Positions 18,114 through 63,741 of a stretch of DNA of 64,000 bases are shown here, piece after piece. The number at the start of each line of letters is the position of its first letter. Positions within the stretch are counted from its first letter, which is position 1. Made by a program: the position numbers and the translations under genes. The notes beneath the pieces are model-generated. The model did no database searches and was not told the origin of the DNA. It saw only the letters and a list, made by a program, of their open reading frames with translations. The DNA comes from Patescibacteria group bacterium (GTDB lineage Bacteria > Patescibacteriota > Minisyncoccia > UBA6257 > UBA9933): contig JBBTPY010000006.1 in the NCBI GenBank assembly GCA_038065955.1, positions 7,626 through 71,625 on the forward strand, written 5' to 3'.

Positions 18114-18117
18114 TCCT

Positions 18118-20961
18118 ATGACAAAGAAAATCCACAATAATTTACTCAATGAATTACCGCTTGCCGCGATACTTGCACCGGAAGTAAAGGCGTGGGCGGA
18201 TCAGGGCTGGCAAGGCGTAACGCAGACGACCTACGAACTTTTGGCGTATTGGTTTAATCGTGGGGAAGAAGACGGCGATGGATTTCATAAATGTCAGCGC
18301 CGTGCGGTGGAGACGATTATTTACTGCCATGAAGTTTTGGGTATTGAAACACTCAAACAGGCATTTGAAAGATTTGCTCCCGAAGCGTTGGCGGCAAGCG
18401 CGGCTCTTTCGGAAGAAGTGCAGAATTTACCTTTTGCGAAATATTGTCTCAAAATGGCAACCGGTACCGGCAAGACATGGGTTTTGGCCGCACTTTTAGT
18501 ATGGCAATATTTCAACGCCCTGAACGGCGAGCGGCCGGGAAAATATTCCTCACATTTTTTGCTCGTTGCGCCTGGACATGAGGTATTGAATCGTTTGCTG
18601 GATATGTTTTTAGGAAAGCATAACCCGAAAACCGGCAATCGCGACAAATCAAAATCGGATTTTGAGCGACCGCTTTTTATACCAGAGGGCGAGCGGTTTC
18701 GCAATCGTTTTAATCTGCAAGTTTTGGAACCGGCGGACATCCGACCAAATCTTACGCCGCCGGACGAGCCGTTTGTGTATATCACTAACTGGCAGCAGTT
18801 TCGTTTGAACGAATCCAGCAACTTATGGGATCAACTAACTGGCGCTGATGTGGAGGAACAGCCGCGCGGCGAAATCATTGCCGATTTTCTTTCCGAGTAT
18901 TCAGATTTAATTATTTTCAATGACGAGGCGCACCATGTCCATGGCGCTAAAACCGCTAAAGGCGAGGAGTTGGTGTGGCGGAAATTCTTAACCGCTCTGT
19001 ATAACCGAATGGCGGAAAAGCGCGGCGATGAGAAAGGCGTATTTTTACAAATTGATTTTTCCGCTACGCCATTTTATGGCAGCGCGGAGAAAAAAGAGTA
19101 CTTCCCCCATATCGTCTATGATTTTGATTTAGTGGAAGCGATGCGGGCGATGCTCGTGAAGCAGATATTTTTGGAAGAACGGCAGGGAATGATGGGCGAG
19201 AAAATGGATGACCTTGATGTGCGCGCCGAACGAGCCGAAGCCGACGACGAACACCGGCGCGGGCAAGTTATCGGTGTTTCCGTGAGCCAGAAACTGCTTT
19301 TAGACATCGGCAGAAAAAAGATGGAGCAGATCGCCGTGGAATTTCGCGAAAAAGGACTGGATAAAAAACCGGTGCTTTTCGTGCTTGCGGAAAATACCGA
19401 GGTGGCTGATTTGGTTGCCGAGCATTTGGCAAATTTGACCGACGAGCGTGGCAGAAACTATCGCAATCAAGTTCTTGTAATTCACTCTGATAAAAAAGGC
19501 GAAATGAGCGACAAGGATTGGGAAAAGTATCGCCAGCAGTTGGAAACGCTAGATGAGCCAGAGGAAATAAACCAGATTCGCGTCGTGGTAAGCGTCTTGA
19601 TGTTGCGCGAGGGTTTTGACACTCAAAATGTGGCGGTGGTAGTGGTTTTGCGGAGCGCGAAAGCTGATCTCCTTTTGGAACAGATTGTCGGGCGCGGCGT
19701 ACGACTGATGTTCCCGGAATACAAATACCCAGAACTTGCGGACTTGAAGCGAGAGGCGCGGGAAGATGTGATGCGAAAGCGCGCGCCGAAAAACTCTTTG
19801 GACTTTTTGTTTGTTGTTGAACACCCAAAATTTCGAGGTTTCTATGAAGAATTACAGAAACAGGGATATGCGATTGGTATTGGCGATTCGTCGAGCACGG
19901 AAACAACCGGCGATTTGATTTTGTCGGAAGCCACACCCGAAAGAATTAAAAAATACGATCTCTCTTGGCCGATACAGGTATATGAACAGTCGCCGAAGTT
20001 TGATTTTTCCGCCATAGGCATTTCGGGGTTACCGAAGTATTCCATTCCGTTTGAGATGCTCAAAAAACAACTTTCCCAAATCTCCATCACAGAAACACAC
20101 GCCGAGACGGGTGGAAAAATAAAAACATGGAAACTGGACAATCAGTATTTTGATTACGCCCATTTCTTGCGCCAAGCAACAATCGCGGTGGCTTCCGAGC
20201 GCGGCACGAACACACTCACTAGCAAGATGGCAGATATTACCGGAATTATTGACGAGTATGTAAGTAATTATTTATTCGGCGGCGAGATTGACTTTCAGAA
20301 GGCCGAAAATTATACGGTCCTCAATTACGCACCGCTTTTTGATTTTGTTGTCGGGAGCGTCAAGCGAGTATTGTTGGATGGCTTGGGTAAAATTCAATAC
20401 GAAGTGAAAGCGGGAAAAGTTGGCAGGTTGAGCGATATAAAAAAGATTTATGTGCGGCAATCGCTATCTGTGCCGGTGGAGCGGTGTATTTATCCGCTCG
20501 CCGGATATTCGCGGCGAGGTGAAGGATTTGAGAAAAAGTTTATGGAGGAAACTTTGGATAAATCCACCGAGGTGGAAGCGTTTGGAAAAATTCAACAGAG
20601 AAAACACCTGCTCAACATTTCCTATCGGGACAAAGACGGAATCAAGCGCGACTATTTCCCCGACTTCGTTATCAAGATAAAAGACAAAATGTATATCGTG
20701 GAAACGAAAGCCGAGGACGAAATACAGAAGGCGGAAGGCAACGAAAAGAATTTGATCGTTTTGAAGGCGCGCGCGGCCGTGAGTTGGTGCAAAACAGCAA
20801 GTCAAATATCGCTCCCGAACCAGCCGCAGGAATGGGAGTATTTTATGTTATCTGAAAAGACATTCAATGAAAACCGGCAATTGGGCTTTGATGCGCTGGC
20901 CGACTTGGGTAGATTGGATTTGGAGCGGCTTTTGACGAGTGAAGCGGGGAAGCTGTTTTGA
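18118..20961 (+). CDS. res: Type III restriction enzyme Res subunit (SF2 helicase plus PD-(D/E)xK nuclease)
   Basis: Walker A 'MATGTGKTWV'; DEAH box 'IIFNDEAHHV'; downstream helicase motifs; C-terminal 'DFVIKIKDKMYIVETKAEDE' nuclease core. Confidence 0.8.
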   Translation: MTKKIHNNLLNELPLAAILAPEVKAWADQGWQGVTQTTYELLAYWFNRGEEDGDGFHKCQRRAVETIIYCHEVLGIETLKQAFERFAPEALAASAALSEEVQNLPFAKYCLKMATGTGKTWVLAALLVWQYFNALNGERPGKYSSHFLLVAPGHEVLNRLLDMFLGKHNPKTGNRDKSKSDFERPLFIPEGERFRNRFNLQVLEPADIRPNLTPPDEPFVYITNWQQFRLNESSNLWDQLTGADVEEQPRGEIIADFLSEYSDLIIFNDEAHHVHGAKTAKGEELVWRKFLTALYNRMAEKRGDEKGVFLQIDFSATPFYGSAEKKEYFPHIVYDFDLVEAMRAMLVKQIFLEERQGMMGEKMDDLDVRAERAEADDEHRRGQVIGVSVSQKLLLDIGRKKMEQIAVEFREKGLDKKPVLFVLAENTEVADLVAEHLANLTDERGRNYRNQVLVIHSDKKGEMSDKDWEKYRQQLETLDEPEEINQIRVVVSVLMLREGFDTQNVAVVVVLRSAKADLLLEQIVGRGVRLMFPEYKYPELADLKREAREDVMRKRAPKNSLDFLFVVEHPKFRGFYEELQKQGYAIGIGDSSSTETTGDLILSEATPERIKKYDLSWPIQVYEQSPKFDFSAIGISGLPKYSIPFEMLKKQLSQISITETHAETGGKIKTWKLDNQYFDYAHFLRQATIAVASERGTNTLTSKMADITGIIDEYVSNYLFGGEIDFQKAENYTVLNYAPLFDFVVGSVKRVLLDGLGKIQYEVKAGKVGRLSDIKKIYVRQSLSVPVERCIYPLAGYSRRGEGFEKKFMEETLDKSTEVEAFGKIQQRKHLLNISYRDKDGIKRDYFPDFVIKIKDKMYIVETKAEDEIQKAEGNEKNLIVLKARAAVSWCKTASQISLPNQPQEWEYFMLSEKTFNENRQLGFDALADLGRLDLERLLTSEAGKLF

Positions 20962-21085: not shown

Positions 21086-21801
21086 CCACCGAGGATTACA
21101 ATTTATATAAATTACTTATCGAAGCGATAATAGCAATCGTCTCTCTTTTAGTTGGTGGAGTAATGGGTATTTATGTAGAAAATAGGTGGAAAATAGTGAA
21201 AAAAGTTAAAAGCCGCATAAATCAGAAAGGTTATGTAAATCAAGCAGTCGAAGTTATTGATAGTCCGCATTCTTCTCCTCAAAATGCTGGTGGCGATGCA
21301 CTTAGACAAGAAGGCGCGGGGGTTCTTGCATCCATTAAAGATAGCCCAGGTGCCTCAATAAACTTTGCGAATAATGAACCCAGGGTCGGGAGCCCCGATG
21401 AAGCTCTTGGGACAAGTTCTTTGCCCACGGAAAGTGAGCGTATTTCTTTGAGTTCGAATCAGGCGCATATTTATCAGAAAGTTCAAGAAATTCTCCAAAA
21501 ACTGAATAAAAACACTACTTTTGCAGCCAGATACCAAAATGCAATCCGTCATTTGAACAGTAATAATGCACAGGTCTGTGCTTCTGAATATCACAGCGCC
21601 TTTCTCGATGTCGTTCCAATTATTTTAGAGCGTTCCACATATGGCAGTTCTGCTCCTACAAAAGATAATTTGGACGCTCTGAACAAATCTTTTGAACAAA
21701 TCCGAGTATTTATGAACACCTCTTCTCACGACGATGCAACGCTGGGAAATACTCTAAAAAGCTTTGAGGATGCCATTCTAATTTTACTTGGTTATCTATG
21801 A
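21082..21801 (+). CDS. Membrane-anchored hypothetical protein (239 aa) in the RM-linked operon
   Basis: N-terminal TM helix, Pro/Ser-rich linker, alpha-helical C-terminal domain. Start and stop codons overlap the flanking genes. Confidence 0.4.
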   Translation: MTTEDYNLYKLLIEAIIAIVSLLVGGVMGIYVENRWKIVKKVKSRINQKGYVNQAVEVIDSPHSSPQNAGGDALRQEGAGVLASIKDSPGASINFANNEPRVGSPDEALGTSSLPTESERISLSSNQAHIYQKVQEILQKLNKNTTFAARYQNAIRHLNSNNAQVCASEYHSAFLDVVPIILERSTYGSSAPTKDNLDALNKSFEQIRVFMNTSSHDDATLGNTLKSFEDAILILLGYL

Positions 21802-24800
21802 ATCAAATCGGATTACACAAAAAAATAGACGAGTTGCTGACAAGGGGGCCTGCTGAAGCAAAGCGTGAGGATATCTCTGCTTTGGCTTCAGCTAATCAGG
21901 ACGCACATCAATACTTTTTCACCAAGGCGGATGAGCGTTGGCTTGATTGGCTTTGGGAAAACGGATTTTTGAATGTCGTCAAGCAAAAAGCAGAAGATCC
22001 GACACGCTATGGCTATAGGACGCCGGAGATTAATTATCTTGTGAAAGTTTCCGAGAGAGAGCCAACCAAGGTGGTTGATATTATGCTTGAGGTGCCAATT
22101 TCTGCCGAGAATTTTAACCCCGAAGTAGTGGATAGATTCTTACGCATCTGCAGCGGCCTGCCGGCACCAGAGCTCAAGCGGGTAGTAAAGAAGATCCGTG
22201 ATGAAAGATGGGTTTCGCTTATGGGAGCTTTCAATGATTGGGGTTTTGAGTATGAAAAAATGCTTAAAACATTAACAGAGGCCAGCGACTTTAATAGCGT
22301 TCTTGCTATTGCCGAGGCAATACTTTCCGTGAGAACAAAGGAAGAGGCGGAAAAAACTTCACGCGGATTTTTATCTGATAACCCCTTCTACTTTAAAGAG
22401 CTAAGTTATACAAAAGTATTTGAGTACCTGCTTAAGATAGATGAGAAAAATATAGAGAAAGCGCTTACTCTAATGACCAACGCAATGAAGCAGGTAGTGC
22501 TCTTCGGGGAAAAAGATCATAAAGACGAGGTGTTTAAAGTTTATGATAGTTACTTTTTATTGGATGTAGATTTTTTTGAGCTTGAACTTACCGAGAAAGA
22601 CAGGCTTTCACACGGGGACGATGTTAAAAATCTCGCAGCCGTTATTAAGCATTATGCAGAACAAACCATAGGACAACAGTGCAACAACGAAGAGTTGATC
22701 ACAAAATTATATGATAAGTATTTTGAGCCATTGCCAGATAGCCGTTCTATGTGGCGTCTGCGATTGTTTGTGTTGAGCTTGTGTCCCGAAGCGTTTAAGA
22801 AAAAGCTCAAAAAAGCGTTCTTCCGATTGTTTGAGGTCGAGCGTTATTATAACGAGTTGATTTCTGGCACAGAATATCTAAAAGCATTACGCGTCGGATT
22901 TCCTGTTTTATCTGATACTGATAAGCGTGATTATGTAAAACGGGTCATAGAGTATTTTACAAAAAAAGACCGAGAAAAGGAGAACGAAAAAGAAAATTGG
23001 CACATAGGGTACGGCTCGAGGATTCTTTCAGTAATAGCCGATCAGCTTACTGAAGAAGAAAAACAAGTAGCTGAAAAAGCTAAATTTACCATCCGTTCTA
23101 ATTACGAACCAGAGCCGTCTATAAAAATGGGTGGATTTGCCGGCAGTATAAGGCCGAGAGGTCCGACTACCCAAGAAGCATTTGGGAAACTTCCGATAGA
23201 TGATATTGCACAAAAATTAAGAACTGAATGGAAACCAGAGAAGTTAAGAGAAGAAAACACAAATGAAGATTTTCACAACCCATTAAATGCCGAGGGTGCC
23301 GGCGAATTGTTGCGTATAGATATTTCTAAACGACTGCAAGATTATGTAAACAATGCCAACCTCTTCTTTGAACGGGGTGTATTGGATCAGCATTATACTT
23401 ATTCTTTTCTGCGAGGCATACAGGAGATTCTTCGCGGCAATAAAGCTGATTCTGGCAATATAAATTGGGATAACTTATTAGCTCTCTGTATCACAATAAA
23501 GGAATCTGGTGAGTCCAATCCTTTCGATAATGAAAGGCGCGAACGAGATAGTTTTGATGCGTGGCTTTCTGGCTGGACAGGCGTTCATTCTGCCATGACG
23601 GATGTTGTCCAAGAACTATTAAGTGAAGAAAGAAGTGTTAAAATCGATTTTCCTAAACATCGCGACAAATTTTTAGTGATTATGAGTTATCTACTCGCTT
23701 ATCCCGATCCGATTCCAGCTGATGAAGAGCCGAAAACGGCGACAATGACCACGACTTCTCCCGGCGCGCAAGAACAGATGGTGAGCGATCCGTATTCAAT
23801 GGCAATCAATACAGTGCGTGGCCGAGCATTTCAGGCTTTTGCGCTATTTATGTATCAAGACGGAAAGAAGTTTCCTAAGGAAGAAAAAGTAAAAATTTCT
23901 CCCGATGTAAAAGAGTTGTATGAGGCAGTTCTAAAAAAAGAGCAGACCCGTGCCCTTATGTTTATGTTCGGGCACTATCTGCCATCGTTCTATTTCCGAG
24001 ACAATGAATGGATACAAGGGCTATTCTCGCAGATTTTCCCCGTAGAGTCAGAAAAGAAAAACCTTTATACGGCATCTTGGGAGGGTTATGTCTCAGCCAA
24101 TCTTTATGAGGAGATATTCTTTAATCCAGAAATTCAAAAACTCTATGAACGAGGCCTCGCATTAACAGATGCGGATTATCCAAAGCAAAAGCATTTCAAA
24201 GAGCCGGATGAAGGTGTTGCTGTTCACATTGCGCTCGCTTTTATGCATTTCTCAAAATTTGGCTTTGAGCACGATCTATTCAAAACATTCTGGAGTACGC
24301 CAAATACAGAAAATCATAAAGAGTTCATTTCGTTTATTGGTCGTCATTCTATCTCACGAGAATCGGCTGCGGAATGGATAAAATATAACAAGGTTGATAT
24401 AGAGAAGCTTAAGAAATTCTGGGATTGGGCACTTGAAAACTGCAGCGCCGATGCGCTAATAGGTTTTGGTTTTTGGATCAATACAGAACGCAGTGCGCTG
24501 GATACAAAATGGCTCGCCCGGCATGCGCGCCAAACGCTCGAAAAGACAAAAGGATATGTCGAGTGGGAATATGGATTGATGCGCTCGCTCATGGCATTTG
24601 CTAAAGAAGCGCCGGAAGATACGCTTGCGATTTTGCGTGCTCATATTTTTGAAGAGGTGGCAAAACATGAGCCGGTTAGAACTTGGCTTCACATGGATAC
24701 CGAGGTTTATGACGCTTTCCGAGAACTCTATAAAAATGAGACGACCAAAGAAGGTGTTCGCACACTTATCAACGATCTCTTGCCATACCGCAACGGTATG

Positions 24801-24839
24801 TTTTGGGGGTTGAAGACGATATTAGACGAAACCAAATAA
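21798..24839 (+). CDS. Large (1013 aa) hypothetical alpha-helical protein, RM-associated, no recognisable catalytic motif
   Basis: Uninterrupted ORF translationally coupled to the upstream gene. No Walker, HD, DEAD or nuclease motifs found by eye. Composition and GC match the res/mod genes. Confidence 0.45.
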   Translation: MNQIGLHKKIDELLTRGPAEAKREDISALASANQDAHQYFFTKADERWLDWLWENGFLNVVKQKAEDPTRYGYRTPEINYLVKVSEREPTKVVDIMLEVPISAENFNPEVVDRFLRICSGLPAPELKRVVKKIRDERWVSLMGAFNDWGFEYEKMLKTLTEASDFNSVLAIAEAILSVRTKEEAEKTSRGFLSDNPFYFKELSYTKVFEYLLKIDEKNIEKALTLMTNAMKQVVLFGEKDHKDEVFKVYDSYFLLDVDFFELELTEKDRLSHGDDVKNLAAVIKHYAEQTIGQQCNNEELITKLYDKYFEPLPDSRSMWRLRLFVLSLCPEAFKKKLKKAFFRLFEVERYYNELISGTEYLKALRVGFPVLSDTDKRDYVKRVIEYFTKKDREKENEKENWHIGYGSRILSVIADQLTEEEKQVAEKAKFTIRSNYEPEPSIKMGGFAGSIRPRGPTTQEAFGKLPIDDIAQKLRTEWKPEKLREENTNEDFHNPLNAEGAGELLRIDISKRLQDYVNNANLFFERGVLDQHYTYSFLRGIQEILRGNKADSGNINWDNLLALCITIKESGESNPFDNERRERDSFDAWLSGWTGVHSAMTDVVQELLSEERSVKIDFPKHRDKFLVIMSYLLAYPDPIPADEEPKTATMTTTSPGAQEQMVSDPYSMAINTVRGRAFQAFALFMYQDGKKFPKEEKVKISPDVKELYEAVLKKEQTRALMFMFGHYLPSFYFRDNEWIQGLFSQIFPVESEKKNLYTASWEGYVSANLYEEIFFNPEIQKLYERGLALTDADYPKQKHFKEPDEGVAVHIALAFMHFSKFGFEHDLFKTFWSTPNTENHKEFISFIGRHSISRESAAEWIKYNKVDIEKLKKFWDWALENCSADALIGFGFWINTERSALDTKWLARHARQTLEKTKGYVEWEYGLMRSLMAFAKEAPEDTLAILRAHIFEEVAKHEPVRTWLHMDTEVYDAFRELYKNETTKEGVRTLINDLLPYRNGMFWGLKTILDETK

Positions 24840-33340: not shown

Positions 33341-34591
33341 TCAAAATCGCTTTTTTTCCTCAATATCTTTTTTCCCCGACATCAGATCGTTTTTCTTTGG
33401 CTGAAACTCCGGCAGTTCTAAATCGCCTTCAAGGTAAGCGTCCATCAGGCGATTTATTTTTGTCTTAATTTTTTCTAATTCTGTTTTAAGATTTTGAGCG
33501 AAAAGGTCAGATGAGTGGCGGGATTCTTTATTCTCATTTTCCAGTTTTGTCAAAAACTTTTCCCGCCACTCATCGGGCAAAGAAACTTTTTGACAAAGAT
33601 TTTTCACTTGTTCAGTTAAAACTTCTTCCCGCAAAAAGCGATTTTCAGTACACGAAATAGTTTTGCTCTTGTGGGTGCAACGATAATAAATAAATTTCAA
33701 ACCACTTTTCTTGATGTGTCGCTCGGCGGTTATGGCATATCCACATACCCCACAAGTAGCAAAACCTAAAAACTGAAAATTCTTTGGTCCTCGCTTTTTG
33801 CGGGGCTTCCCATTCTGAACAAGTGCATTTTGAATTTGGTCAAAAAGTTTCTTTGCAATCATTGGCTTATGCGAACCTTGATGCACCTCGCCACGATATT
33901 GAAAGTGTCCGTAGTAAAAAGGATTTTTCAAAATATGTTCAATACTGGCGAGGTGCAAAGGTTTACCTGTTTTGCCAACCAAGCCAAGAGAAAACATTTT
34001 GCGTTGAATAGCCGTGAGTGTGTATTGCCCCGAAGCAAAAGCCCCTAACGCTTCTTTTACTTTGCCAAAAGTTTTTCTATCCGGCTCAATCGTCCGCAAA
34101 CGAGGTTCGTTGAAATATCCTAAAGGGGCTTTTGCGGAAAGTTCACCACGGCGTATTTTTTGGCGAATACCACGCAAAATGTTTTCTCTTAAATTGTCGG
34201 TGTAATACTTTGCTTGTCCGAAGGCGACACTCAACATAAATTTTCCTTGCGGTGTCGCCTCGAACCAGAAAGTAGGGAATTTTAGCGCAACAATCTTTTG
34301 CGTATCCACCAAATAAATTACTCTGCCACCGTCTATGCTATTTCTCGCTAAACGGTCTGGATTCCACGCTAAAATTCCCTGTGCAGTGCCTTTTTCAATT
34401 TCGCCAAGCATTTCGTTGAAAACTACTCTACCCGGCTCTTTGGCGGTCTTGCTCTCGTAAAATTCTTTTTCAACGAAAAGATTATTTTGCTTGGCGAATT
34501 CCCGAAGCTCCGTCAATTGTGCCTCAATACTTAAAACTTGGCGTTCTTCGTCTTCACTTGATTTTCTACAATAGATAAAATATTTGATCAT
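33341..34591 (-). CDS. Large serine recombinase (resolvase/invertase catalytic domain, recombinase domain, zinc ribbon)
   Basis: N-terminal 'YCRKSSEDEERQVLSIEAQ' contains the catalytic Ser. C-terminal 'CGVCGYAITAERHIKKSGLKFIYYRCTHK' is the zinc ribbon of large serine recombinases. Confidence 0.85.
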   Translation of the reverse strand: MIKYFIYCRKSSEDEERQVLSIEAQLTELREFAKQNNLFVEKEFYESKTAKEPGRVVFNEMLGEIEKGTAQGILAWNPDRLARNSIDGGRVIYLVDTQKIVALKFPTFWFEATPQGKFMLSVAFGQAKYYTDNLRENILRGIRQKIRRGELSAKAPLGYFNEPRLRTIEPDRKTFGKVKEALGAFASGQYTLTAIQRKMFSLGLVGKTGKPLHLASIEHILKNPFYYGHFQYRGEVHQGSHKPMIAKKLFDQIQNALVQNGKPRKKRGPKNFQFLGFATCGVCGYAITAERHIKKSGLKFIYYRCTHKSKTISCTENRFLREEVLTEQVKNLCQKVSLPDEWREKFLTKLENENKESRHSSDLFAQNLKTELEKIKTKINRLMDAYLEGDLELPEFQPKKNDLMSGKKDIEEKKRF

Positions 34592-55050: not shown

Positions 55051-56055
55051 TTGGAAATGTACGAACTTTATTTTAATATTCTTTTAATTGCAGTCGGGAT
55101 TTTTGCGCTTATTAAATCCGGCGCTTATGTCGTTAAGGCGTTAATTAATATCGCTCATTTTTTAAAAATATCCGAATTCACGCTTTCTTTTATTTTGATG
55201 GCGGCCGCCACTTCGCTCCCGGAATTAGGCATCGGATTGAACGCCGCTTTCAATAATACGCCACTTATTTCTTTGGGGAATATTTTAGGAGCCAACATTT
55301 TGGTTTTAAGTTTGATTTTAGGAGCGATGATTTTAATTGAAGGCAATTTGACGCTGAAAAAACATTCGCCGGCCCATTCCAGTTGGTTTAATTTTTTTCT
55401 GGCAATTTCGCCGGTTATATTATTGATTGACGGCGATCTTTCGCGGTTTGACGGCTTGATTTTAATCGCGCTTTTTGTTTTAAATTTAGGCAGACTTTTG
55501 AAATTTCGGGAGATTTTTAATCATCATCGTGTCAAGCATTTCTTGAATGGAGATGAACATCGGCTGGCTGATTTAAATACAAGTTTTTTTTTAAAAAATT
55601 TATTTATTTTTATTCTGGCAATCGGCGTTTTGCTGTTATCGTCTTATTTAATAGTTAAAGGAGTGGAAATATTTTCTTTGAAATTGGGAATACCGGAAAT
55701 ACTGATAGGAATTTTTATTGTCGCTTTGAGCACGACTTTGCCGGAATTGTCGTTCGGTATCAAGGCGATTTTAAGCCGGCGCAATGAGATGTCTTTGGGC
55801 AATCTTTTAGGGACGGTCGTTTTTAATTCAACGCTGATTCTGGGAATTGTTTCCTTAATCAGTCCGATAAGAATAGAGAATGGCGTTTCTTTTTGGGTTA
55901 GCGCCGGAGTTATGATTTTGATAATTTTTTTGGCAAATTTATTTTTGAAAACTCGCGATTCGCTCAATCGTCTGGAAGGATTATTATTGATTTTGATTTA
56001 TTTTGTTTTCGCGATTATATCTTATGTTTTGGCGTTACCCAAAATCCCAGTCTGA
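55051..56055 (+). CDS. CaCA-family Na+/Ca2+ (cation/Ca2+) exchanger, YrbG-like
   Basis: Two alpha-repeat signatures: 'MAAATSLPELGIGLNAAF' and 'ALSTTLPELSFGIKAIL'. Confidence 0.75.
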   Translation: MEMYELYFNILLIAVGIFALIKSGAYVVKALINIAHFLKISEFTLSFILMAAATSLPELGIGLNAAFNNTPLISLGNILGANILVLSLILGAMILIEGNLTLKKHSPAHSSWFNFFLAISPVILLIDGDLSRFDGLILIALFVLNLGRLLKFREIFNHHRVKHFLNGDEHRLADLNTSFFLKNLFIFILAIGVLLLSSYLIVKGVEIFSLKLGIPEILIGIFIVALSTTLPELSFGIKAILSRRNEMSLGNLLGTVVFNSTLILGIVSLISPIRIENGVSFWVSAGVMILIIFLANLFLKTRDSLNRLEGLLLILIYFVFAIISYVLALPKIPV

Positions 56056-57580
56056 ATTTTCCCGAAAGCGCAAGCCGCGTTTGCGCTTCAAGAGCCGGCA
56101 GGGCGCCGAAGATAATCATCGTCAACATAAGCAGAGGCCATTGGAAAATCATTAAAAGATATTTGTGTTTGCCGTAATTTTTAGGAAGCGGCGGCAAAAT
56201 TACCATCGTTAAATAAGCGGAAGTAACGATGCCGACCATTGAAAAAGTCATCAGCCATCTTGTGATTTGAGGGAGATTATACGCCAAAAGAGTTTGCTTG
56301 AATGCTTCTCCTCCCAGAACCAGCGGCATCCAGCCGAGAAAAAAAATAATTAAAGCGTTTGTTGACCAGGACCAGACGCCTTCAATATAGACGAAGCTGT
56401 AGCGGATTTTTTTATAAAGCGGAATCTTTTTGTTTTTTAAAAAGCCGAATAGAAAATAAGGGATATTTTCAGCGCCCCAAGCCCAGCGTCTTTGCTGTTT
56501 ATATAAATTTTTCATCGTTTGCCAAAAAGTTGGCGCCGCGTTGGCGTCCATTTTTATGGGATAATAAATGGGGATAACGCCGTAATTTCCGTTGTGCCGA
56601 AGCAGACATTGCCAGAAAATTCGCGAGTCTTCGCTGACCATATTTTTCTGCCATAAATCAACGTTGACCAGCGCCTGAAACGGCATTGAATGGGAAGAAA
56701 AAGTGGTAAGCCGTTCGGCTCTTTCTTGTTGAATTGTATGCCAAAAAGTGGCGGAAAACGCGACTACGCGAGCGAGCGCCGGCGCCTGCCAAATGTTATT
56801 AACGTAAAATGGCACCGGCTGATAACTGAAATTCTGGGGATTGGGCGTGTTTAAATAAATATAAGTCAATCGGCTGAAATAATCGGGGAAAATAACGGTG
56901 TCAATGTCAAAAGCCGAGACGATGATTTTATCATAAGGAATTTTCAATGCGTCAATGATTTTTTCTCTGGTTTCTTTTCCGGCGAACGCGATATTTGATC
57001 CTTTGCCGGGAATTTCATCGAGTAAGTCTTTTGGATGGATGGTGATTAAGAATTTGAAAAATTGAGAACCGAATTCTTTTTTAATTTTTTGAGTAATTTC
57101 TAAAATTGATTCGCCGGCGCGCTCTTCGGCCGCCAAAACGACAATTATTTTATCTTTCGGATAATTAACCGGAATTAAACTTTTTACCGATGCGCGGATA
57201 GTTTCTTCGGATTCGTTGTAAAAAGGCAAAATAATTAAATGATAAATATCTCGCCAATTTTTGTTTATAGTTTGCAGTTTGTAATTAGCAGTTAATTTTT
57301 CCAGCCAATTTATTTTTAAATTTTCTTTAATTTTTTTAAATGCCGAGCGCAGGTGCAGAGAAAGATAAATTGTTTTTAATAGCCAATAAACATCAAAGGC
57401 GATAATAAAAAAAGCCGTAAAAACCGGAGCGAAATAAGATAAAGCGAAAATCCCTAAAAGTGTTGACCAAGCCAATGTTCCTGGCAAAATTTCCAAAAAT
57501 CTGTATATTATCCGTTCTTTGGGGATAATTAAGTCTTGCGACGAGCCGATTTTGGTGTAATAATATTCTTTAGGAAGCAT
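56015..57580 (-). CDS. Membrane-embedded processive family-2 glycosyltransferase (cellulose/chitin-synthase-like)
   Basis: 'QQRRWAWG' QxxRW motif; upstream D/DxD regions ('VVLAAEERAGE', 'SAFDIDT'); multiple TM helices at both ends. Confidence 0.6.
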   Translation of the reverse strand: MLPKEYYYTKIGSSQDLIIPKERIIYRFLEILPGTLAWSTLLGIFALSYFAPVFTAFFIIAFDVYWLLKTIYLSLHLRSAFKKIKENLKINWLEKLTANYKLQTINKNWRDIYHLIILPFYNESEETIRASVKSLIPVNYPKDKIIVVLAAEERAGESILEITQKIKKEFGSQFFKFLITIHPKDLLDEIPGKGSNIAFAGKETREKIIDALKIPYDKIIVSAFDIDTVIFPDYFSRLTYIYLNTPNPQNFSYQPVPFYVNNIWQAPALARVVAFSATFWHTIQQERAERLTTFSSHSMPFQALVNVDLWQKNMVSEDSRIFWQCLLRHNGNYGVIPIYYPIKMDANAAPTFWQTMKNLYKQQRRWAWGAENIPYFLFGFLKNKKIPLYKKIRYSFVYIEGVWSWSTNALIIFFLGWMPLVLGGEAFKQTLLAYNLPQITRWLMTFSMVGIVTSAYLTMVILPPLPKNYGKHKYLLMIFQWPLLMLTMIIFGALPALEAQTRLALSGKFRLGFWVTPKHKI

Positions 57581-57621: not shown

Positions 57622-59907
57622 ATGAATCAAGTTTTAGAAGCTTCGAATAACGAAAGTAGCGGTTCAAAATGGCGCTGGCTGTTTATTATTTTTGCCGTCT
57701 CGCTGTTTTTGATTTTTATCAGCGGCATTTTTTGGATTTTTACTAAAAGCACGGCTTCGCCGATTGGACTCGGCTGGTTTTTATTCAGTTTTGCCGCCGG
57801 ATTATCAATGATTGTGCTTCCATGCACTTTGCCCTTGGCTTTTGTAATTGTGCCTTTATCAATGGGTAAGGGTTATGTAAAAGGATTAGCGGTGGCGTTG
57901 GCGTTCGGCTTGGGCGTTGCCATCACTCTTTCCACTTACGGCATTTTTGCCGCTTTGCTCGGCAAAGTTTTTATTGCTTATGCCGGCGGCGGAGGCGAGA
58001 TTATTAAAAATATTTTTTATGCCATTGCCGGAGTTTTTGCGATGCTGTTCGCTTTGTCCGAATTAAAATTGATTAATTTTCGCATCCCCAGTTATATGGG
58101 CGCGGCCCCGGGTTTTATTCAAAGGCGCAGCGATATTGCCAAGGCCTTAATGCTCGGACTTTTTTTGGGAAATATCGGTATTGGCTGTCCGCACCCGGCA
58201 ACGCCGATAATTTTAGGGCAGATTGGAATTATCGGAGATGTTTTTTACGGCTGGCTTTTATTTTTAACGCACGCGATCGGAAGAATCATCCCGCTGTTGT
58301 TATTGGCAATTTTGGGAATTTTGGGAATTAACGCCACTAAAGCGCTGATGGCGCGCAAAGAATCAATCGCCAGAGCCACTGCTTGGGGAATGGTTTTTGT
58401 CGGAGCTTTTTTGTTTACGCTCGGATTTTTCGGCCATGATTGGTGGGTATTTTCCGGAATGCACACGTTGCTGGAAGAAATCACGCAAGAGGAGCGCTTG
58501 CTCGGTATTTTGAAAGGCAGATTGGAAAGCGCGGTTACTCATGTTCACGGCATTCCAACTGGTACCGGATTTTTCGGCTTGCCTTTATGGCTGGGTAATT
58601 GGGTTTTTGTGCTGTTGATGGCAATACCATTGTGGGGTTCTTGGTTTCTTCAGCGCAGAAAATTAAGCGTTTTAACAGAGCCGGAACAAAGCATTTTAAA
58701 AAAAGAATTAAGATTGAAAAAATTTAAATTCGCGGTTTTAACGATTATTTTCGCCTTAACTTTTATTTATATTTTGCCGCAAAGATTTTTATCTCAGCAA
58801 TTGGCGCATCAGGCGGAAGAAGTTGGATATGACTATACGGCAGGCGCGCATCTTCCGGCGAAAACAGTTGATATTTCTGAAATTGGCAAGAGAGCTGATG
58901 ACTTGCCGGCGCCGATTGTCCGCCGGGAAAATGAAAAAGTGATAGTGGAATTGGAAACGCGGGAAATTGTCGCTGAAATCGCGCCCGGAATCACTTATGA
59001 ATATTGGACTTATAATGGCACTGTACCCGGACCCTTTATCAGAGTTAAAGAAGGGGACACGGTGGAGGTCCGGCTTACTCACGCATTGCACAGTCATGCG
59101 GCAAATGCCGAACATTCTTTTAATATCAGCGCTTTTCCGGTTAAAAGCGTAAACGCTGGCGTTGGACATAACGATGAGCATGATTCAATGGCGAATTCAG
59201 ATCACGAAAAAGCCGGTCATGCCAAGCATTCCATTGACCTTCACGCCGTGGAAGGCCCGGGAGGCGGAGCGGTTTTAACGCAGGTTGAAAGCGGGCAAAC
59301 AGCTACTTTTCAATTTAAAGCCACGCGGCCGGGAATCTATGTGTATCATTGCGCCAGCCCTCATATTCCCACTCATGTTGCCAATGGAATGTACGGGTTA
59401 ATTTTGGTTGAGCCGAAAAACGGCTTGGCAAAAGTTGCTCAAGAATTTTATGTGATGCAGGGAGAGTTTTACACGAAAGGCGAGGTTGGCGAAAAAGGCC
59501 ATCAGGAATTCAGTTTGGAAAAATTGAAAAAAGAAGCGCCGGAATATTTTGCGTTTAACGGCCGCGTCGGTTCTTTAACAGGTAGCCGCGCCTTAAAAGC
59601 CAAAGTCGGCGAAACAATCCGCCTTTATTTCGGAGTCGGGTCGCATATCGCTTCAAATTTTCATATTATCGGAGGAATTTTAGATAAACTTTATCCGGAG
59701 GGAGACATTATATCTTTGCCGCATCGCAATGTTCAGACAACAATTGTGCCGCCGGGAGGCGCGGCAATGGCGGAATTCAAATTGGAAGTTCCCGGCAAAT
59801 ATTTATTGGTTGATCACAGCTTGTCGCGCGCCATTGACAAAGGAGCGATTGGAGAGATTATCGTAAGCGGAGAAGAAAATCCGGAAATTTTTAAAAAAGT
59901 AAAATAA
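57622..59907 (+). CDS. Fusion of a CcdA/DsbD-like polytopic thiol-disulfide membrane domain to a NirK-type (copper nitrite reductase-like) cupredoxin domain
   Basis: N-terminal 'LPCTLPLAF' and 'GIGCPHPATP' Cys motifs in TM helices. C-terminal type-1 Cu site 'YVYHCASPHIPTHVANGMYGLILVEP'. His-rich loop 'HNDEHDSMANSDHEKAGHAKH'. Confidence 0.55.
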   Translation: MNQVLEASNNESSGSKWRWLFIIFAVSLFLIFISGIFWIFTKSTASPIGLGWFLFSFAAGLSMIVLPCTLPLAFVIVPLSMGKGYVKGLAVALAFGLGVAITLSTYGIFAALLGKVFIAYAGGGGEIIKNIFYAIAGVFAMLFALSELKLINFRIPSYMGAAPGFIQRRSDIAKALMLGLFLGNIGIGCPHPATPIILGQIGIIGDVFYGWLLFLTHAIGRIIPLLLLAILGILGINATKALMARKESIARATAWGMVFVGAFLFTLGFFGHDWWVFSGMHTLLEEITQEERLLGILKGRLESAVTHVHGIPTGTGFFGLPLWLGNWVFVLLMAIPLWGSWFLQRRKLSVLTEPEQSILKKELRLKKFKFAVLTIIFALTFIYILPQRFLSQQLAHQAEEVGYDYTAGAHLPAKTVDISEIGKRADDLPAPIVRRENEKVIVELETREIVAEIAPGITYEYWTYNGTVPGPFIRVKEGDTVEVRLTHALHSHAANAEHSFNISAFPVKSVNAGVGHNDEHDSMANSDHEKAGHAKHSIDLHAVEGPGGGAVLTQVESGQTATFQFKATRPGIYVYHCASPHIPTHVANGMYGLILVEPKNGLAKVAQEFYVMQGEFYTKGEVGEKGHQEFSLEKLKKEAPEYFAFNGRVGSLTGSRALKAKVGETIRLYFGVGSHIASNFHIIGGILDKLYPEGDIISLPHRNVQTTIVPPGGAAMAEFKLEVPGKYLLVDHSLSRAIDKGAIGEIIVSGEENPEIFKKVK

Positions 59908-59908
59908 A

Positions 59909-60175
59909 ATGAAAAAGATTATTTTGGAAATTTTGTCGTCGCCGGGGTGCGTTCATTGCGCTGAATTTAAAAAATATTGGGAAAGCGTTAAGGCTCAATT
60001 TCCCGACGTGGAAATGGCTGAAATTGATTTAACCAGCGATAAAGGTCAGGAAATGGTTCAGAAATATATGATTATGGCTTCTCCGGGTGTTATAATAAAT
60101 GGAGAGCTTTTTTCAACCGGCGGAGTCAATAAAGAAAAATTTGAAATGAAATTAAAGGAATTATCCGTGTCTTAA
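59909..60175 (+). CDS. Small thioredoxin-fold protein (SPGCxxC type)
   Basis: 'SSPGCVHCAEFKKYW' CxxC active site; 88 aa. Confidence 0.65.
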   Translation: MKKIILEILSSPGCVHCAEFKKYWESVKAQFPDVEMAEIDLTSDKGQEMVQKYMIMASPGVIINGELFSTGGVNKEKFEMKLKELSVS

Positions 60176-60682: not shown

Positions 60683-61081
60683 ATGAATAAATTCGTCATT
60701 ATCGCTATTTTCGCCGCTATCTTAATCGGAGCCGGCATAACATACAGCGTTTATTTTCGCGCTCCGGAAATCGCTCCCATTAAACCAACCGGCAATATTG
60801 TAGAAATCAATATAACGGCGAATAAAAATAAATGGAATCCAACACTGATTACCGTCAAAGCCGGCGATACCATTAAAATAAATTTGATTAACGAAGACCT
60901 CTATGACCACGGATTTGCCATAGAGGCCTTTGGCATTAATAAGCGAATGTTCGCCAAGCAAAACACTTCGGTGGAATTTGTCGCTTCAAAAAAAGGCAAT
61001 TTTGTTTTTTATTGCTCTGTGCCGTGCGGCGAAGGACATTTTGAACAAACCGGCCACCTTATAGTAGTAAGTAGTGAGTAG
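60683..61081 (+). CDS. Membrane-anchored cupredoxin-like copper-binding protein
   Basis: 'YDHGFAIE...FYCSVPCGEGHFEQTGHL' H...C..C..H...M-like ligand spacing (CuA/cupredoxin type). Start taken at Met 60683 ('MNKFVIIAIF'). Confidence 0.5.
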   Translation: MNKFVIIAIFAAILIGAGITYSVYFRAPEIAPIKPTGNIVEINITANKNKWNPTLITVKAGDTIKINLINEDLYDHGFAIEAFGINKRMFAKQNTSVEFVASKKGNFVFYCSVPCGEGHFEQTGHLIVVSSE

Positions 61082-61101: not shown

Positions 61102-63516
61102 ATGCAAGAACGTAAAATTTTCAAAATTAGAGGAATGCATTGCGCCGCGTGCGCCAATTTAATCAACAAATTTTTGTTGAAGCAAAAAGGCGTGCTGGAA
61201 GCGAATGCCAATTTCGGCTCTGAATCTTTGAACGCGTTTTATGACAGTTCGGTTATCACGCCGGAGCAGATGAACGCCGTTTTGAAGAAGCTCGGTTATA
61301 GCCTTATCATAGCGGAGAAAGAAAGCGAAAGCGAAGAATTGGCGGAAATGGAAAGGCAAAAAGAAATTCAAAATCTCAAAAAAAGGACAATCATCAGTTT
61401 TATTTTTGCTTCGCCGATAATTCTTTACTATATGACAGTGCATATGTTTAATTTAAAACATATTCACGCTTTTTGCGTTTCTGGCGGCGGATTGATGACA
61501 GGATTGGTAAGCGGATGCCAAGGCGGATGGCTTTTGGATTTTAATTGGATATTTTTCGCGATGACTACGCCGATACAATTGGGAGTCGGCTGGGTGTTTT
61601 ACAGAAACGCCTGGACCGCCATGCGCGTCGGTTCGGCTTCAATGGATGTTTTGGTGGTTTTGGGAACAAGCGCGGCTTATTTGATTTCGGTTATCGGTTT
61701 TCTTTTTTCCGATTTGGCTTTTTTGCGCGAATGGAGCGGCTGGAGCGGTTTGGACCATCCTTTTTGGGAATCCTCGGCGGCCTTGGTTTCTTTTATTATT
61801 CTCGGTCGTTATTTTGAAGCGCGTTCCAGGGGTCGAGTAACATCGGCAATCCGCAAGCTAATGAATTTGGCGCCAAAAACCGCGATTGTTATTCGCGATG
61901 GCAAGGAGCTGGAAATTCCATCCAGCGAGCTGAAAATTGACGATATCTTTTTGGTAAAGCCCGGAGCCAATGTGCCGACGGACGGCATTATTGTTGAAGG
62001 CAAATCGTCAATTGACGAAAAAGTCGTTACCGGCGAATCAATGCCCGTTGGCAAAGACGCGGGCGATGAAGTAATAGGCGCGACCAATAACACTTACGGC
62101 CTTTTGAAATGCCGCGCCAAGAAAGTGGGCAAAGACACTTTGCTTTTTCAGATTATTAAAATGGTTCGCGAAGCTCAATCGTCAAAGGCCTCTATTCAGG
62201 ACGTGGCCGACAGAGTGTCGGAAAAATTCGTGCCCATTGTTATCGTGTTTGCTTTGCTGGTTTTTTCAATGTGGTATTTCATTCTCGGCTATCCGGCAAT
62301 TCCTTCAATGATTTTTATGGTGGCGGTTCTGGTTATTTCTTGCCCTTGCGCTTTGGGATTGGCAACGCCTACGGCTTTGATGGTTGGCACTGCTCGCGGC
62401 GCGCAATCCGGCATTTTAATAAAAGGCGGTAAAGCGCTCGAAGGCGCTTATAAGATTAATGCTGTGGCGTTTGACAAGACCGGCACGCTTACCAAGGGCG
62501 AGCCGGCGGTAACCGATGTGGTTGCTTTGGCCGCTCTGCCCAAAGAAGAAGTTTTGAAAATTGCCGCTATTGCCGAGCGCGGTTCCGAACATCCGCTTGC
62601 TCAAGCGATTATTAAAGCTTCAGCCGATGTTCCCGAGCCGAAAGAATTTTCCGCGCTTTCAGGCCGCGGCATTAAAGCGCAATATGAAGGCAAAACAATT
62701 TTAGTGGGCAATGAGCTTTTGATGGCGGAAAATAATTTGGATATTACTCCTTACGAAAAAGATTATGAAGATTTGCAGAATCAGGCGAAAACCGTCGTTT
62801 TCACCGCTTATAACGGAAAAATTATCGGCATTATCGCCTTGGCCGACACTTTGAAAGATTATGTCAAAGAAGCGATTACGGAACTTAAAAAAATGAAGAA
62901 AGAAATTATTATGATTACCGGCGACAATGAAAAAACCGCCAAAGCCATTGCTTCAAGTATTGGCATTGACAGTTATTTTGCCAAAGTTTTGCCGGAGAAA
63001 AAAGAGGAGTTAATAGCCAATCTGCAAAAGCAAGGTAAGGTGGTGGCAATGGTTGGCGATGGCATTAATGACGCGCCGGCTTTGGCAAAAGCCGATTTGG
63101 GAATCGCGGTCGGTTCCGGCACCGATGTGGCGATTGAAACCGGCGACATTATTTTAATTAAAGACGATATTCGCGACGTGGTTACTGCCATTGATTTGTC
63201 CAAAAAAACCATCCATAAAATTTGGCAGAATTTCTTCTGGGCTTTCATTTATAATATAATCGCCATTCCCGTTGCCGCCGGCGTTCATTTGTTTATAACG
63301 CAAACCGCCGGCGTTCCGGCGCCTTGGGTGGTAGAAGCGGCGGCTTTTCTTGGAGAAGCTAGCGGTAAGATATTCCTGAATCTTTCGCAGTCGTCGCTTA
63401 GGCCGGAAATCGCCGGTTTTGCCATGGCGTTTTCTTCGGTGTCGGTGGTAATGAATTCTCTTTTACTCAACCGCTACAAAGAGCCAAAGTTTGCCAGAGA
63501 GAATAAAAAACAATAA
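61102..63516 (+). CDS. copA: Copper-translocating P1B-type ATPase
   Basis: N-terminal HMA 'GMHCAACANLI'; 'CPC' in 'ISCPCALGLATP'; 'DKTGTLT'; 'GDGINDAPAL'. Confidence 0.9.
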   Translation: MQERKIFKIRGMHCAACANLINKFLLKQKGVLEANANFGSESLNAFYDSSVITPEQMNAVLKKLGYSLIIAEKESESEELAEMERQKEIQNLKKRTIISFIFASPIILYYMTVHMFNLKHIHAFCVSGGGLMTGLVSGCQGGWLLDFNWIFFAMTTPIQLGVGWVFYRNAWTAMRVGSASMDVLVVLGTSAAYLISVIGFLFSDLAFLREWSGWSGLDHPFWESSAALVSFIILGRYFEARSRGRVTSAIRKLMNLAPKTAIVIRDGKELEIPSSELKIDDIFLVKPGANVPTDGIIVEGKSSIDEKVVTGESMPVGKDAGDEVIGATNNTYGLLKCRAKKVGKDTLLFQIIKMVREAQSSKASIQDVADRVSEKFVPIVIVFALLVFSMWYFILGYPAIPSMIFMVAVLVISCPCALGLATPTALMVGTARGAQSGILIKGGKALEGAYKINAVAFDKTGTLTKGEPAVTDVVALAALPKEEVLKIAAIAERGSEHPLAQAIIKASADVPEPKEFSALSGRGIKAQYEGKTILVGNELLMAENNLDITPYEKDYEDLQNQAKTVVFTAYNGKIIGIIALADTLKDYVKEAITELKKMKKEIIMITGDNEKTAKAIASSIGIDSYFAKVLPEKKEELIANLQKQGKVVAMVGDGINDAPALAKADLGIAVGSGTDVAIETGDIILIKDDIRDVVTAIDLSKKTIHKIWQNFFWAFIYNIIAIPVAAGVHLFITQTAGVPAPWVVEAAAFLGEASGKIFLNLSQSSLRPEIAGFAMAFSSVSVVMNSLLLNRYKEPKFARENKKQ

Positions 63517-63525
63517 AATATACAT

Positions 63526-63741
63526 ATGACAAAAAAATTTTATAACATAGAAGGCATGCATTGCGGAGCTTGTAGCACCGGCATTGAAATGTTTTTGTCC
63601 AATACCGAAGGCGTGAAATCCGCGAAGGTTTCGTTTGAAGAAAAAAAAGCCGAAGTGGAGTATGACGAAAATAAAGTAAACGACGAAAAAGTGGTTAAAG
63701 CAGTTGAAGAAGCGGGGTTTAAAGCGCAGGCAATTTCTTGA
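63526..63741 (+). CDS. copZ: Copper chaperone CopZ (HMA domain)
   Basis: 'GMHCGACSTGIEMFL' MxCxxC motif; 71 aa. Confidence 0.8.
   Translation: MTKKFYNIEGMHCGACSTGIEMFLSNTEGVKSAKVSFEEKKAEVEYDENKVNDEKVVKAVEEAGFKAQAIS

Follow-up and report, generated by a model that had tools for sequence, protein, structure and literature searches.

A nine-helix DsbD-like membrane module fused to an AniA-type copper nitrite reductase in a modular copper operon of Patescibacteria

Copper nitrite reductases (NirK) with conserved ligands have been reported in many lineages of the candidate phyla radiation (CPR) (Danczak et al. 2017, PMC5581439; 2025 survey, PMC12931201). In both studies, a cupredoxin was proposed as the carrier for NirK, and the electron path to this cupredoxin was called unknown, since CPR organisms lack complex III and usually the whole respiratory chain. 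In the alignments of Danczak et al., unaligned ends were trimmed (PMC5581439). Here, we analyze a gene in which NirK is continuous with a membrane domain of the DsbD/CcdA superfamily. The gene lies in a 64,000-nucleotide stretch of a Patescibacteria (CPR) genome, which was analyzed as a whole and is called the window below. The closest named relative is a metagenome-assembled genome (MAG) of Candidatus Wolfebacteria, and the host is described as a tiny groundwater Patescibacteria bacterium. The Hainich aquifer harbors close relatives.

Several described systems resemble parts of this locus. The assembly of CuA centers needs a reductant relay of TrxA, CcdA and TlpA/Sco together with the copper chaperone PCuAC or YtkA/CtaK (Hederstedt 2022, PMC9145763). 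According to a review of the Scs systems, a DsbD-family protein with tandem immunoglobulin-like (Ig) domains acts in copper tolerance; this protein, ScsB, is dedicated to copper stress, is presumed to be fed by cytoplasmic thioredoxin (Trx) and has been reported to bind Cu+ (PMC10907172). In addition, Meheust et al. (2021, PMC8238504) proposed that non-thiol redox systems outside the cytosol are supplied by DsbD. As for the combination present in the window, no description of the NirK fusion, of the family of its membrane module or of a NirK acting as a cuprous oxidase was found in the open-access literature, and the same fusion was not found on plasmids of cultured bacteria. Each part of the locus is of a known kind, but their combination, the family of the module including its outer His/Glu cluster, and the operon with its modular make-up appear undescribed. 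The fusion gene consists of the following parts (positions in the window; aa, amino acids; TM, transmembrane helix).

57622..59907, + strand: fusion open reading frame (ORF), membrane module and AniA-type NirK, 761 aa, ATG start, uninterrupted
57622..58806, + strand: membrane module, aa 1-395, nine predicted helices, DsbD_TM superfamily
57823..57825, + strand: codon of Cys68 (TM1, LPCTLP), invariant in 115 family members
58186..58188, + strand: codon of Cys189 (TM4, GCPHP), invariant in 115 family members
58435..58548, + strand: His/Glu segment of the predicted outer face, aa 272-309, invariant across the core family
58698-58704, + strand: A7 homopolymer, in frame within the fusion gene
58912..59904, + strand: NirK catalytic domain, aa 431-761, matched by TIGR02376 and aligned to AniA (1kbv)
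59080..59229, + strand: His-rich insertion, aa 487-536, nine His in 50 residues, just before H536

The preliminary description of this DNA, made from the sequence, had proposed a single gene joining a CcdA-like membrane domain to NirK and had named a sequencing frameshift as one finding that would refute this proposal. The window reads through the A7 homopolymer in one frame. In a public contig that is 100% identical (ENA ERZ1286166 contig_106, L001, 695 kb), the same run contains only six A and the gene is split, so that a truncated 435-aa "NirK" (P0016) stands in the databases. This protein, also 100% identical, comprises the C-terminal half only; its first 33 residues are read from the other frame, which joins at "KKELRL". 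The contig comes from the same or a near-identical genome, and its fragmented genes are typical of unpolished long-read assemblies. Since several of its other genes are also broken by what look like many indel errors, namely those of a Na/Ca exchanger, a glycosyltransferase and CopA, the split is an assembly artefact. Full-length orthologues of the fusion exist at 83-87% identity to the window protein. The fusion gene and its operon were also found at the loci L002/L003 and L010-L012, and a relative of 83% identity has the same operon. An artefact of two genes or of a frameshift in the window is therefore ruled out, the split being confined to the error-prone contig, and the fusion of the module and NirK is real.

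The C-terminal domain scores 319.5 bits with the NCBIfam model TIGR02376 (copper nitrite reductase), above the curated equivalog cut-off of 296.3, and 318 bits with AniA of Neisseria gonorrhoeae (1kbv). The type-1 copper (T1Cu) ligand block previously recognized in this domain is present: H536, C577, H585 and M590 align with positions 94, 135, 143 and 148 of the 1kbv chain, and the segment YVYHCASPHIPTHVANGMYG carries H576, C577, H585 and M590. The ligands of the type-2 copper (T2Cu), H541, H576 and H732, the catalytic residues D539 and H681 and the motifs HSIDLH, FHIIGG and LVDHS also align with those of AniA. With the T2Cu site complete and both catalytic residues in place, which settles the check proposed for this domain, it looks catalytic in type and not restricted to electron transfer. 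The whole fusion protein contains three Cys residues, namely C68, C189 and C577.

AniA and the NirK of the window thus share the T1Cu site (His, Cys, His, Met), the three-His T2Cu site and the catalytic Asp/His. They would also share a surface-anchored, outward-facing position, which for the window protein is predicted from the topology of the module. However, the window NirK is anchored by a nine-helix DsbD-like module and not by a lipid, it is encoded in a copper operon and not in a denitrification cluster, and it has a His-rich insertion before the first T1Cu ligand, which in the 1kbv alignment measures approximately 45 residues vs approximately 4 in AniA. The insertion is common to the unfused relatives P0052, P0055 and P0087, the first of which is anchored by a single TM helix and the other two by a lipoprotein signal.

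As for the N-terminal part, both Cys motifs listed in the preliminary description (LPCTLP and GCPHPATP) were found, and its length of about 380 aa had to be revised to about 395 aa with nine predicted helices: a first helix (TM0), a six-helix DsbD-like core and two more helices. The Pfam profile DsbD_TM (PF02683; gathering score 27.1) gave 25.4 bits with the full protein and 27.3 bits with the isolated module, and it was matched by 32/33 and 59/59 family members, with a best E-value of 7e-12. None of the NCBIfam CcdA or DsbD models was reached by the fusion protein, and comparison of the module with solved structures, by sequence and by Foldseek, matched nothing. A phmmer search of 1.84 billion representatives found 251 relatives of the module; ordinary CcdA/DsbD proteins were absent among the 150 listed. 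The designation "CcdA-like" therefore holds at the level of the DsbD_TM superfamily and not beyond it, the relatives being remote and the TM4 motif reading GCPHP vs the canonical P-C-x-x-P.

The AlphaFold2 (AF2) model of the module, built with 52 homologues, consists of nine long helices (predicted local distance difference test 84.5, predicted template modelling score 0.78). TM1 and TM4 are interrupted in it at the Cys residues (positions 65-67 and 182-193). Interruptions of this kind fit the 3+3 architecture of DsbD/CcdA, the comparison being with this general scheme. Loops rich in Lys and Arg were read from the sequence at 148-174, 235-252 and 344-369. From these loop charges, the N-terminus is predicted to be inside, and the 272-320 loop, the C-terminus of the module and NirK to be outside.

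Among 115 homologues, C68, C189, P190, H191, H217 and R221 are invariant or nearly so. H191 is retained in 98% of members and replaced by Asn in P0015 and P0017. Nearly all members have exactly two Cys in the module. In the window protein, these lie in Pro-flanked motifs of TM1 and TM4, as is characteristic of DsbD/CcdA, though TM4 departs from PCxxP. The module is conserved at 50-69% identity, more strongly than its fusion partners. Among distant relatives (23-37% identity), six proteins have both the TM1 and the TM4 Cys and eight have neither; such joint presence or absence fits a functional pair. The branch without either Cys (P0192, P0207, P0214, P0216, P0240, P0249, P0252, P0253) has a C-terminal coiled-coil-like extension and a final TM helix, and one of its members, P0253, is still fused to a three-domain multicopper oxidase (MCO).

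A second conserved feature is the segment containing H272, W274, W275, H281, E285, E290, H307 and H309. It is restricted to the core family and does not occur in distant relatives. According to the pattern of loop charges, this His/Glu cluster is predicted to be extracytoplasmic, and it may bind metal. To our knowledge, canonical CcdA has no such invariant outer cluster.

Taken together, the module resembles CcdA/DsbD in profile homology, in the Cys of TM1 and TM4, in the predicted helix breaks at these Cys and in an adjacent gene for a cytoplasmic thioredoxin; the thioredoxin is linked to the module family as a donor by conserved synteny only. In contrast to CcdA/DsbD, the module is very remote in sequence, has GCPHP in TM4, three extra helices and the invariant outer His/Glu cluster, its operon encodes no secreted thioredoxin-fold acceptor and the copper proteins fused to it lack a Cys pair. 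GCPHPATP was also compared with the CPC/CPH helix found in P1B ATPases; the likeness proved to be noise, hhalign giving a probability of 1.6% for the module and CopA. Weak E1-E2_ATPase matches seen in 9/33 and 8/59 members were gone in ten members scanned singly.

Five genes follow the fusion gene on the same strand, the first at a distance of 1 nt and the next four at distances of 1-26 nt.

59909..60175, + strand: thioredoxin, cytoplasmic-type, 88 aa, CVHC, starting 1 nt past the fusion stop codon
60202..60681, + strand: Met/His/Glu-rich protein, 159 aa, with a signal-like N-terminal segment and a hydrophobic C-terminal tail
60683..61081, + strand: membrane-anchored cupredoxin, 132 aa, CuA-type pattern H-x34-C-x3-C-x3-H-x2-Q
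61102..63516, + strand: CopA-type Cu(I)-exporting P1B ATPase with an N-terminal HMA domain (TIGR01525, 618 bits; TIGR01511, 578 bits)
63526..63741, + strand: CopZ-type HMA copper chaperone (HMA, 61.4 bits; CopZ models, approximately 60 bits)

The product of the first gene is the CxxC thioredoxin that had been noticed next to the fusion. It matches Pfam Thioredoxin_3 at 36.5 bits; the closest solved structure is the redox-active thioredoxin MJ0307 (1fo5, E = 4e-9), and all of the 69 orthologues keep its CxxC and cis-Pro motifs without change. The copper-gene surroundings described earlier were likewise found, in the form of the cupredoxin, CopA and CopZ beside the fusion. The 159-aa protein has Met/His/Glu-rich stretches, MKMDEMMSAMMG and MEFHDMMHTM, matches no Pfam family and is limited to those operon variants that contain NirK or a two-domain MCO; judging by its composition, it may bind copper.

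The cupredoxin matches Cupredoxin_1 at 43.9 bits. Among solved structures, it is closest to the donor cupredoxin domains that are tethered to NirK in the three-domain enzymes 6tfd and 2dv6; nitrosocyanin comes next, along with CuA domains from NosZ and CoxB, and the NosZ and CoxB matches are far under the cut-offs. Whereas in three-domain NirKs the donor domain is part of the enzyme, the operon cupredoxin is encoded by a separate gene and has a CuA-type two-Cys site instead of T1Cu. H-x34-C-x3-C, which is the exact CuA spacing, is present in 62/68 orthologues. The window protein has H-x2-Q where canonical CuA has Met, and sister clades have an insertion of 6-7 residues and then H-x2-M. By its motif, the cupredoxin can be called CuA-like. 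A free-standing CuA-like protein is odd, since neither cytochrome oxidase nor NosZ is in view. A role as a cytoplasmic chaperone of the CupA type was also considered and set aside, as there was no CupA match among the solved structures.

The Cys content of the operon limits the route that a thiol relay could take. The fused domains of the family carry zero or one Cys (NirK and MCOs only that of T1Cu, and the His-rich domain described below none), and because they lack a Cys pair, a classical CcdA-type relay cannot end inside the fusion protein. No secreted thioredoxin-fold acceptor of the ResA, CcsX, DsbD-gamma or ScsC type was found in the operon, either in the window or in the gene tables of six contigs. 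The CxxxC of the cupredoxin is the sole other conserved Cys pair in the operon.

The distribution of the operon was assessed with conserved peptides of the module. These matched 221 species-representative genomes, and 80 loci were retained for a tblastn census. Nearly all of them bear Patescibacteria/Parcubacteria-group labels; a few labels are generic and one is Azotimanducaceae. The operon around the module was confirmed in most of the 80 loci. The domain fused to the module was as follows.

HisIg, a Cys-free His-rich domain: 47/80 loci
Three-domain MCO: 10/80 loci
Two-domain MCO: 8/80 loci
NirK: 3/80 loci
No fused domain: 9/80 loci
Locus ending ahead of the fused domain: 3/80 loci

Partner genes were counted over the 42 loci with full flanks. 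The cupredoxin was present in 39/42, CopA in 37/42 and Trx in 38/42, where Trx is adjacent to the module whichever domain is fused. The gene-call tables of six independent contigs show an identical gene order. Among the forms of this modular operon of Paceibacteria, which consists of Trx, the module with an exchangeable domain, a CuA-like cupredoxin, CopA and CopZ, the one with the NirK fusion is thus in the minority. The architecture had previously been considered unusual; a fusion with NirK is indeed rare, but it is no singular case and belongs to a widespread modular family.

HisIg, the commonest fused domain, is an internal duplication in which each half has three invariant His with the spacing H-x12-H-x-H, six in all. 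The model of this domain in P0026 (aa 410-660) is a confident tandem Ig-like beta-sandwich, which rules out a cupredoxin. Foldseek finds generic tandem Ig folds, including the zinc-bound 9mhl "Zcp". With YtkA/CtaK (PF13115), the best score was 24.9 bits, under the cut-off of 25.9, and 8/59 members reached E<=0.1. HisIg is probably a metal-binding domain, to which we assign no specificity. A NirK-like match of the profile of alignment A1 was due to NirK and MCO rows mixed into this alignment, and with the profile of HisIg alone (A3), nothing came up except spurious sums over polyubiquitin, the single domains having E-values above 100.

The reading that we favor, tentatively and with considerable doubt about it as a whole, is that a thiol relay supports metallation of the cupredoxin, which in turn feeds NirK. 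The cytoplasmic Trx, translationally coupled to the fusion gene, would reduce the Cys68/Cys189 pair, and the module would pass the reducing power to the outer face. There it would serve the outer copper proteins, the first client being the CxxxC of the cupredoxin, held reduced for Cu(I) arriving from CopZ/CopA; this step would parallel the path from TrxA through CcdA to TlpA/Sco in CuA assembly. The loaded cupredoxin would then give electrons to the T1Cu of NirK, and nitrite would be reduced to nitric oxide (NO) at T2Cu. Such a scheme uses every conserved part and has precedent for most of its steps. Direct support exists for the identity of the domains and their ligands, for the conservation of the Cys pair and of the operon and for the topology pattern; the individual transfers, the direction in which electrons flow and their physiological source are what we infer. 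An enzyme energized across the membrane, as considered in the preliminary description, is a hypothesis, the electrons for nitrite reduction coming from the thiol relay, from the cupredoxin or from Cu(I) in the different readings.

The likeness to the CuA assembly machinery extends to several components. The operon contains analogues of the thioredoxin, of the CcdA-like relay and of the copper supply, HisIg is weakly similar to YtkA, and the client cupredoxin has the exact H-x34-CxxxC site. In contrast to this machinery, the client is a stand-alone cupredoxin and not subunit II of cytochrome oxidase, components are fused, Sco/TlpA was not seen in the operon and NirK replaces the chaperone-like domain in the window.

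A number of points weigh against the relay to the cupredoxin. The TM4 motif is GCPHP instead of PCxxP, a secreted thioredoxin-fold acceptor is absent from the operon, and we know of no precedent for direct reduction of a cupredoxin by such a module. The charge pattern of the cupredoxin leaves its orientation ambiguous. The scheme gives no reason why NirK, an MCO or HisIg, rather than the cupredoxin, should be fused to the module, and it leaves the ultimate source of turnover electrons unexplained. In addition, most CPR NirKs are unfused, several of them lying away from the module operon, and the NirKs fused to CopA or located in Cus/CsoR/CueO-like clusters without the module (see below) point to a copper role with no thiol relay. 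The favored scheme and its alternatives are not all mutually exclusive.

In one alternative, the module would do no more than tether exo-enzymes to the membrane as an anchor or scaffold, the cell having no periplasm, and the adjacency of Trx would be incidental. For unfused relatives, one TM helix or a lipid suffices as the anchor, and some distant modules have lost both Cys, the MCO-fused P0253 among them. However, nine helices are far beyond the needs of anchoring, Trx is adjacent in 38/42 full-flank loci, and the module exceeds the fused domains in conservation and contains the invariant Cys pair and the His/Glu cluster. Because the module is so strongly conserved, a role as a pure anchor is unlikely, and we give it hardly any credence.

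The conserved His residues bring up a second alternative, in which the module is a copper channel or insertase. Cu(I) would be bound in mid-membrane by Cys68, Cys189 and His191 and released or taken up at the outer His/Glu cluster, which would metallate the fused cuproprotein; the Trx-fold protein would act through its thiols as a copper partner or maintain the site in reduced form. All the conserved neighbors handle copper, H191, H217, H272, H281, H307 and H309 lie along the predicted path, and His is frequent inside the CxxC dipeptide of Trx. The wider LysE/DsbD superfamily includes metal transporters, for example NicO and CadD, which also speaks for a channel. On the other hand, copper export is already supplied by CopA/CopZ, the likeness of GCPHPATP to the P1B CPC/CPH helix is not homology in view of the hhalign result, and Trx is nearest to redox-active thioredoxins. 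P0015 and P0017 have Asn and Gln in place of H191 and H217, yet keep both Cys. These two proteins had suggested that H191 and H217 are co-varying ligands, an idea that was dropped, since distant relatives with GCPNP retain the TM5 His. Overall, a channel or insertase is very unlikely in our opinion.

The NirKs encoded outside the fusion bear on the function of the window gene as well. In most CPR cases, NirK is an unfused protein of 360-400 aa that shares 62-78% identity with the NirK domain of the window. In Ryanbacteria, where it is widely sampled, the unfused NirK lies approximately 2 kb from a divergent operon of Trx, module, HisIg, cupredoxin, CopA and CopZ; this is not general for CPR NirKs, being the case for 1/4 of the unfused examples examined. 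The same Ryanbacteria locus encodes an ordinary-looking 253-aa DsbD_TM/DsbD_2 protein beside a dual-specificity phosphatase (L092:14795-15556, - strand). Since both are encoded there, the specialized module coexists with a conventional CcdA-like protein.

Regulators of the ArsR/SmtB type with a helix-turn-helix precede two of the four unfused CPR nirK genes and overlap the nirK start (L094:9702-10004 and L096:9699-9998); this suggests metal- or redox-responsive control and not control of the NsrR/NnrR type. A conserved 126-aa DoxX-like membrane protein (20.3 bits, cut-off 23.6) is encoded directly 3' of unfused CPR NirK genes (L093:11149-11529, L094:11155-11535); the Ryanbacteria NirK and one of the regulator-linked NirKs are among those it follows. 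DoxX further occurs in the module operons L004 and L008, and in P0137 it is joined to the module itself. One further unfused CPR NirK lies 5' of a Pyr_redox_2 flavoprotein.

Two loci in MAGs outside CPR connect NirK with copper export. The first (L090:3-2261; GCA_964632925.1, CAZWCH010000022.1) encodes in one continuous ORF a CopA-type ATPase, the 5' end of which is cut by the contig edge, and a complete NirK (TIGR02376, 304 bits), with one extra TM helix between them; the ATPase has the motifs CPC, DKTGT and GDGIND. A second, unfused NirK with the His-rich insertion follows 1.6 kb downstream. In the other locus (L091:241-11747; JGI 3300076214), a NirK with the His-rich insertion (308.6 bits) lies between a CzcB-like adaptor, a CusA/CzcA pump of the resistance-nodulation-division (RND) type (1020 bits), a CsoR/RicR-family repressor and DUF302, listed before it, and a CueO-like MCO and DUF2933, listed after it, a set that looks like a copper-resistance island. 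Both loci indicate that NirK domains of the window type have repeatedly been joined to copper-export machinery.

These loci are one reason to consider NirK as a nitrite-dependent cuprous oxidase that serves copper detoxification, replaces CueO and works without O2, and they lend indirect support to the cuprous oxidase mentioned as a possibility in the preliminary description. Cu(I) exported by CopA would be oxidized at the His-rich loop or through the cupredoxin, the electron would go to nitrite, and Trx with the module would merely protect or repair thiols during copper stress, as Scs does. ScsB already ties the DsbD family to copper tolerance (PMC10907172). Beside CopA/CopZ, NirK is interchangeable with two- and three-domain MCOs, and two unfused CPR NirKs are paired with the ArsR/SmtB-type regulators. 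The operon further encodes His/Met-rich linkers and the Met/His-rich 159-aa protein. The His-rich insertion of approximately 45 residues stands directly before the T1Cu His, a position that we take to be analogous to that of the Met-rich insert of CueO. Against a cuprous oxidase, the catalytic apparatus of the domain does not differ from that of ordinary nitrite reductases, with approximately 60% identity to AniA, and a NirK with Cu(I) as its physiological donor was not found in the open-access literature. The proximity of CopA would be explained equally well by a dedicated copper supply for a two-copper enzyme, the CopA-fused NirK and the copper-island NirK are two loci only, both from non-CPR MAGs, and the reaction yields toxic NO. 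We consider this function somewhat unlikely.

The two copper-tolerance systems invoked here also differ from the operon in their organization. The operon resembles Cue (CopA with CueO) in combining a copper exporter with a T1Cu oxidoreductase that lies outside the membrane, NirK taking the MCO slot, but the oxidoreductase of the window is fused to a thiol-relay-like module. With the Scs proteins of Salmonella, Proteus and Caulobacter, the family shares a DsbD-family membrane protein, tandem Ig-fold extracytoplasmic domains and the link to copper. However, the Ig domains of ScsB are N-terminal, contain a redox-active CX3C and pass electrons to the thioredoxin-fold ScsC, whereas those of the module family, found in the sister proteins, are C-terminal and Cys-free, and no ScsC-like gene occurs in the operons; the features that define ScsB are thus lacking.

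The pairing of unfused CPR NirKs with other membrane or redox proteins (the DoxX-like 126-aa protein and Pyr_redox_2), together with the DoxX-module fusion P0137, bears on a further alternative: the Trx/module relay may itself be the catalytic electron source, which would make NirK a thiol-fed terminal reductase. Electrons would pass from NAD(P)H through thioredoxin reductase, Trx, Cys68/Cys189 and the outer-cluster copper and/or the cupredoxin to T1Cu and T2Cu, providing a surface electron sink (nitrite, or O2 in the MCO variants) for a fermenter without quinones and cytochromes. Consistent with this, a superfamily of electron conduits is fused here to enzymes fed through T1Cu (NirK, two- and three-domain MCOs), the invariant outer His4/Glu2 cluster is specific to the core family, and the cupredoxin resembles NirK donor domains. 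The donor route to CPR NirK is called unknown in the literature, and the supply of non-thiol extracytosolic redox systems by DsbD has been proposed (PMC8238504). However, the commonest fused domain has neither Cys nor T1Cu, and 9/80 loci have no fused domain and keep the remainder of the operon, which means that the conserved core needs no terminal reductase. Furthermore, we know of no physiological precedent for electron transfer from a two-electron dithiol to a one-electron copper center. A thiol-fed reductase seems unlikely to us.

As for the surroundings of the operon, a divergent gene 41 nt upstream of the fusion gene (56015-57580, - strand) encodes a 521-aa multi-pass glycosyltransferase-like protein with weak matches to GT2 and chitin synthase; it is retained as a neighbor in L002 and L003. 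The rest of the window contains housekeeping genes. Apart from these, a type III restriction-modification pair (N6_N4 methylase and ResIII helicase) was found at 16221-20961, a 1013-aa ORF without a Pfam match at 21798-24839 and a large serine recombinase at 33341-34591 (- strand). Since the GC content rises to approximately 0.48 at 18-20 kb and 28-30 kb vs approximately 0.40 elsewhere in the window, these segments may be mobile or foreign.

Proposed ecological roles of CPR bacteria, such as nitrite detoxification for their hosts and denitrification, rest on NirK, and the locus gives a testable lead on how bacteria without a respiratory chain feed or mature this enzyme. More generally, a widespread operon has been found in which NirK, MCOs and HisIg are swapped on one membrane module beside CopA/CopZ. 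A self-contained chain leading from NAD(P)H through thioredoxin reductase, Trx, the module (with outer-cluster copper) and the cupredoxin to NirK or an MCO is improbable in our estimate. If true, it would answer the published question of electron supply to CPR NirK and would be a new use of the DsbD fold; the operon would then be an electron-transport chain free of quinones and cytochromes, by which CPR bacteria would reduce nitrite or O2 at their surface with thiol-derived electrons. Because domains are swapped on the module and independent CopA-NirK fusions exist, our results also suggest that part of what is scored as "denitrification" genes in metagenomes may in fact serve copper homeostasis.

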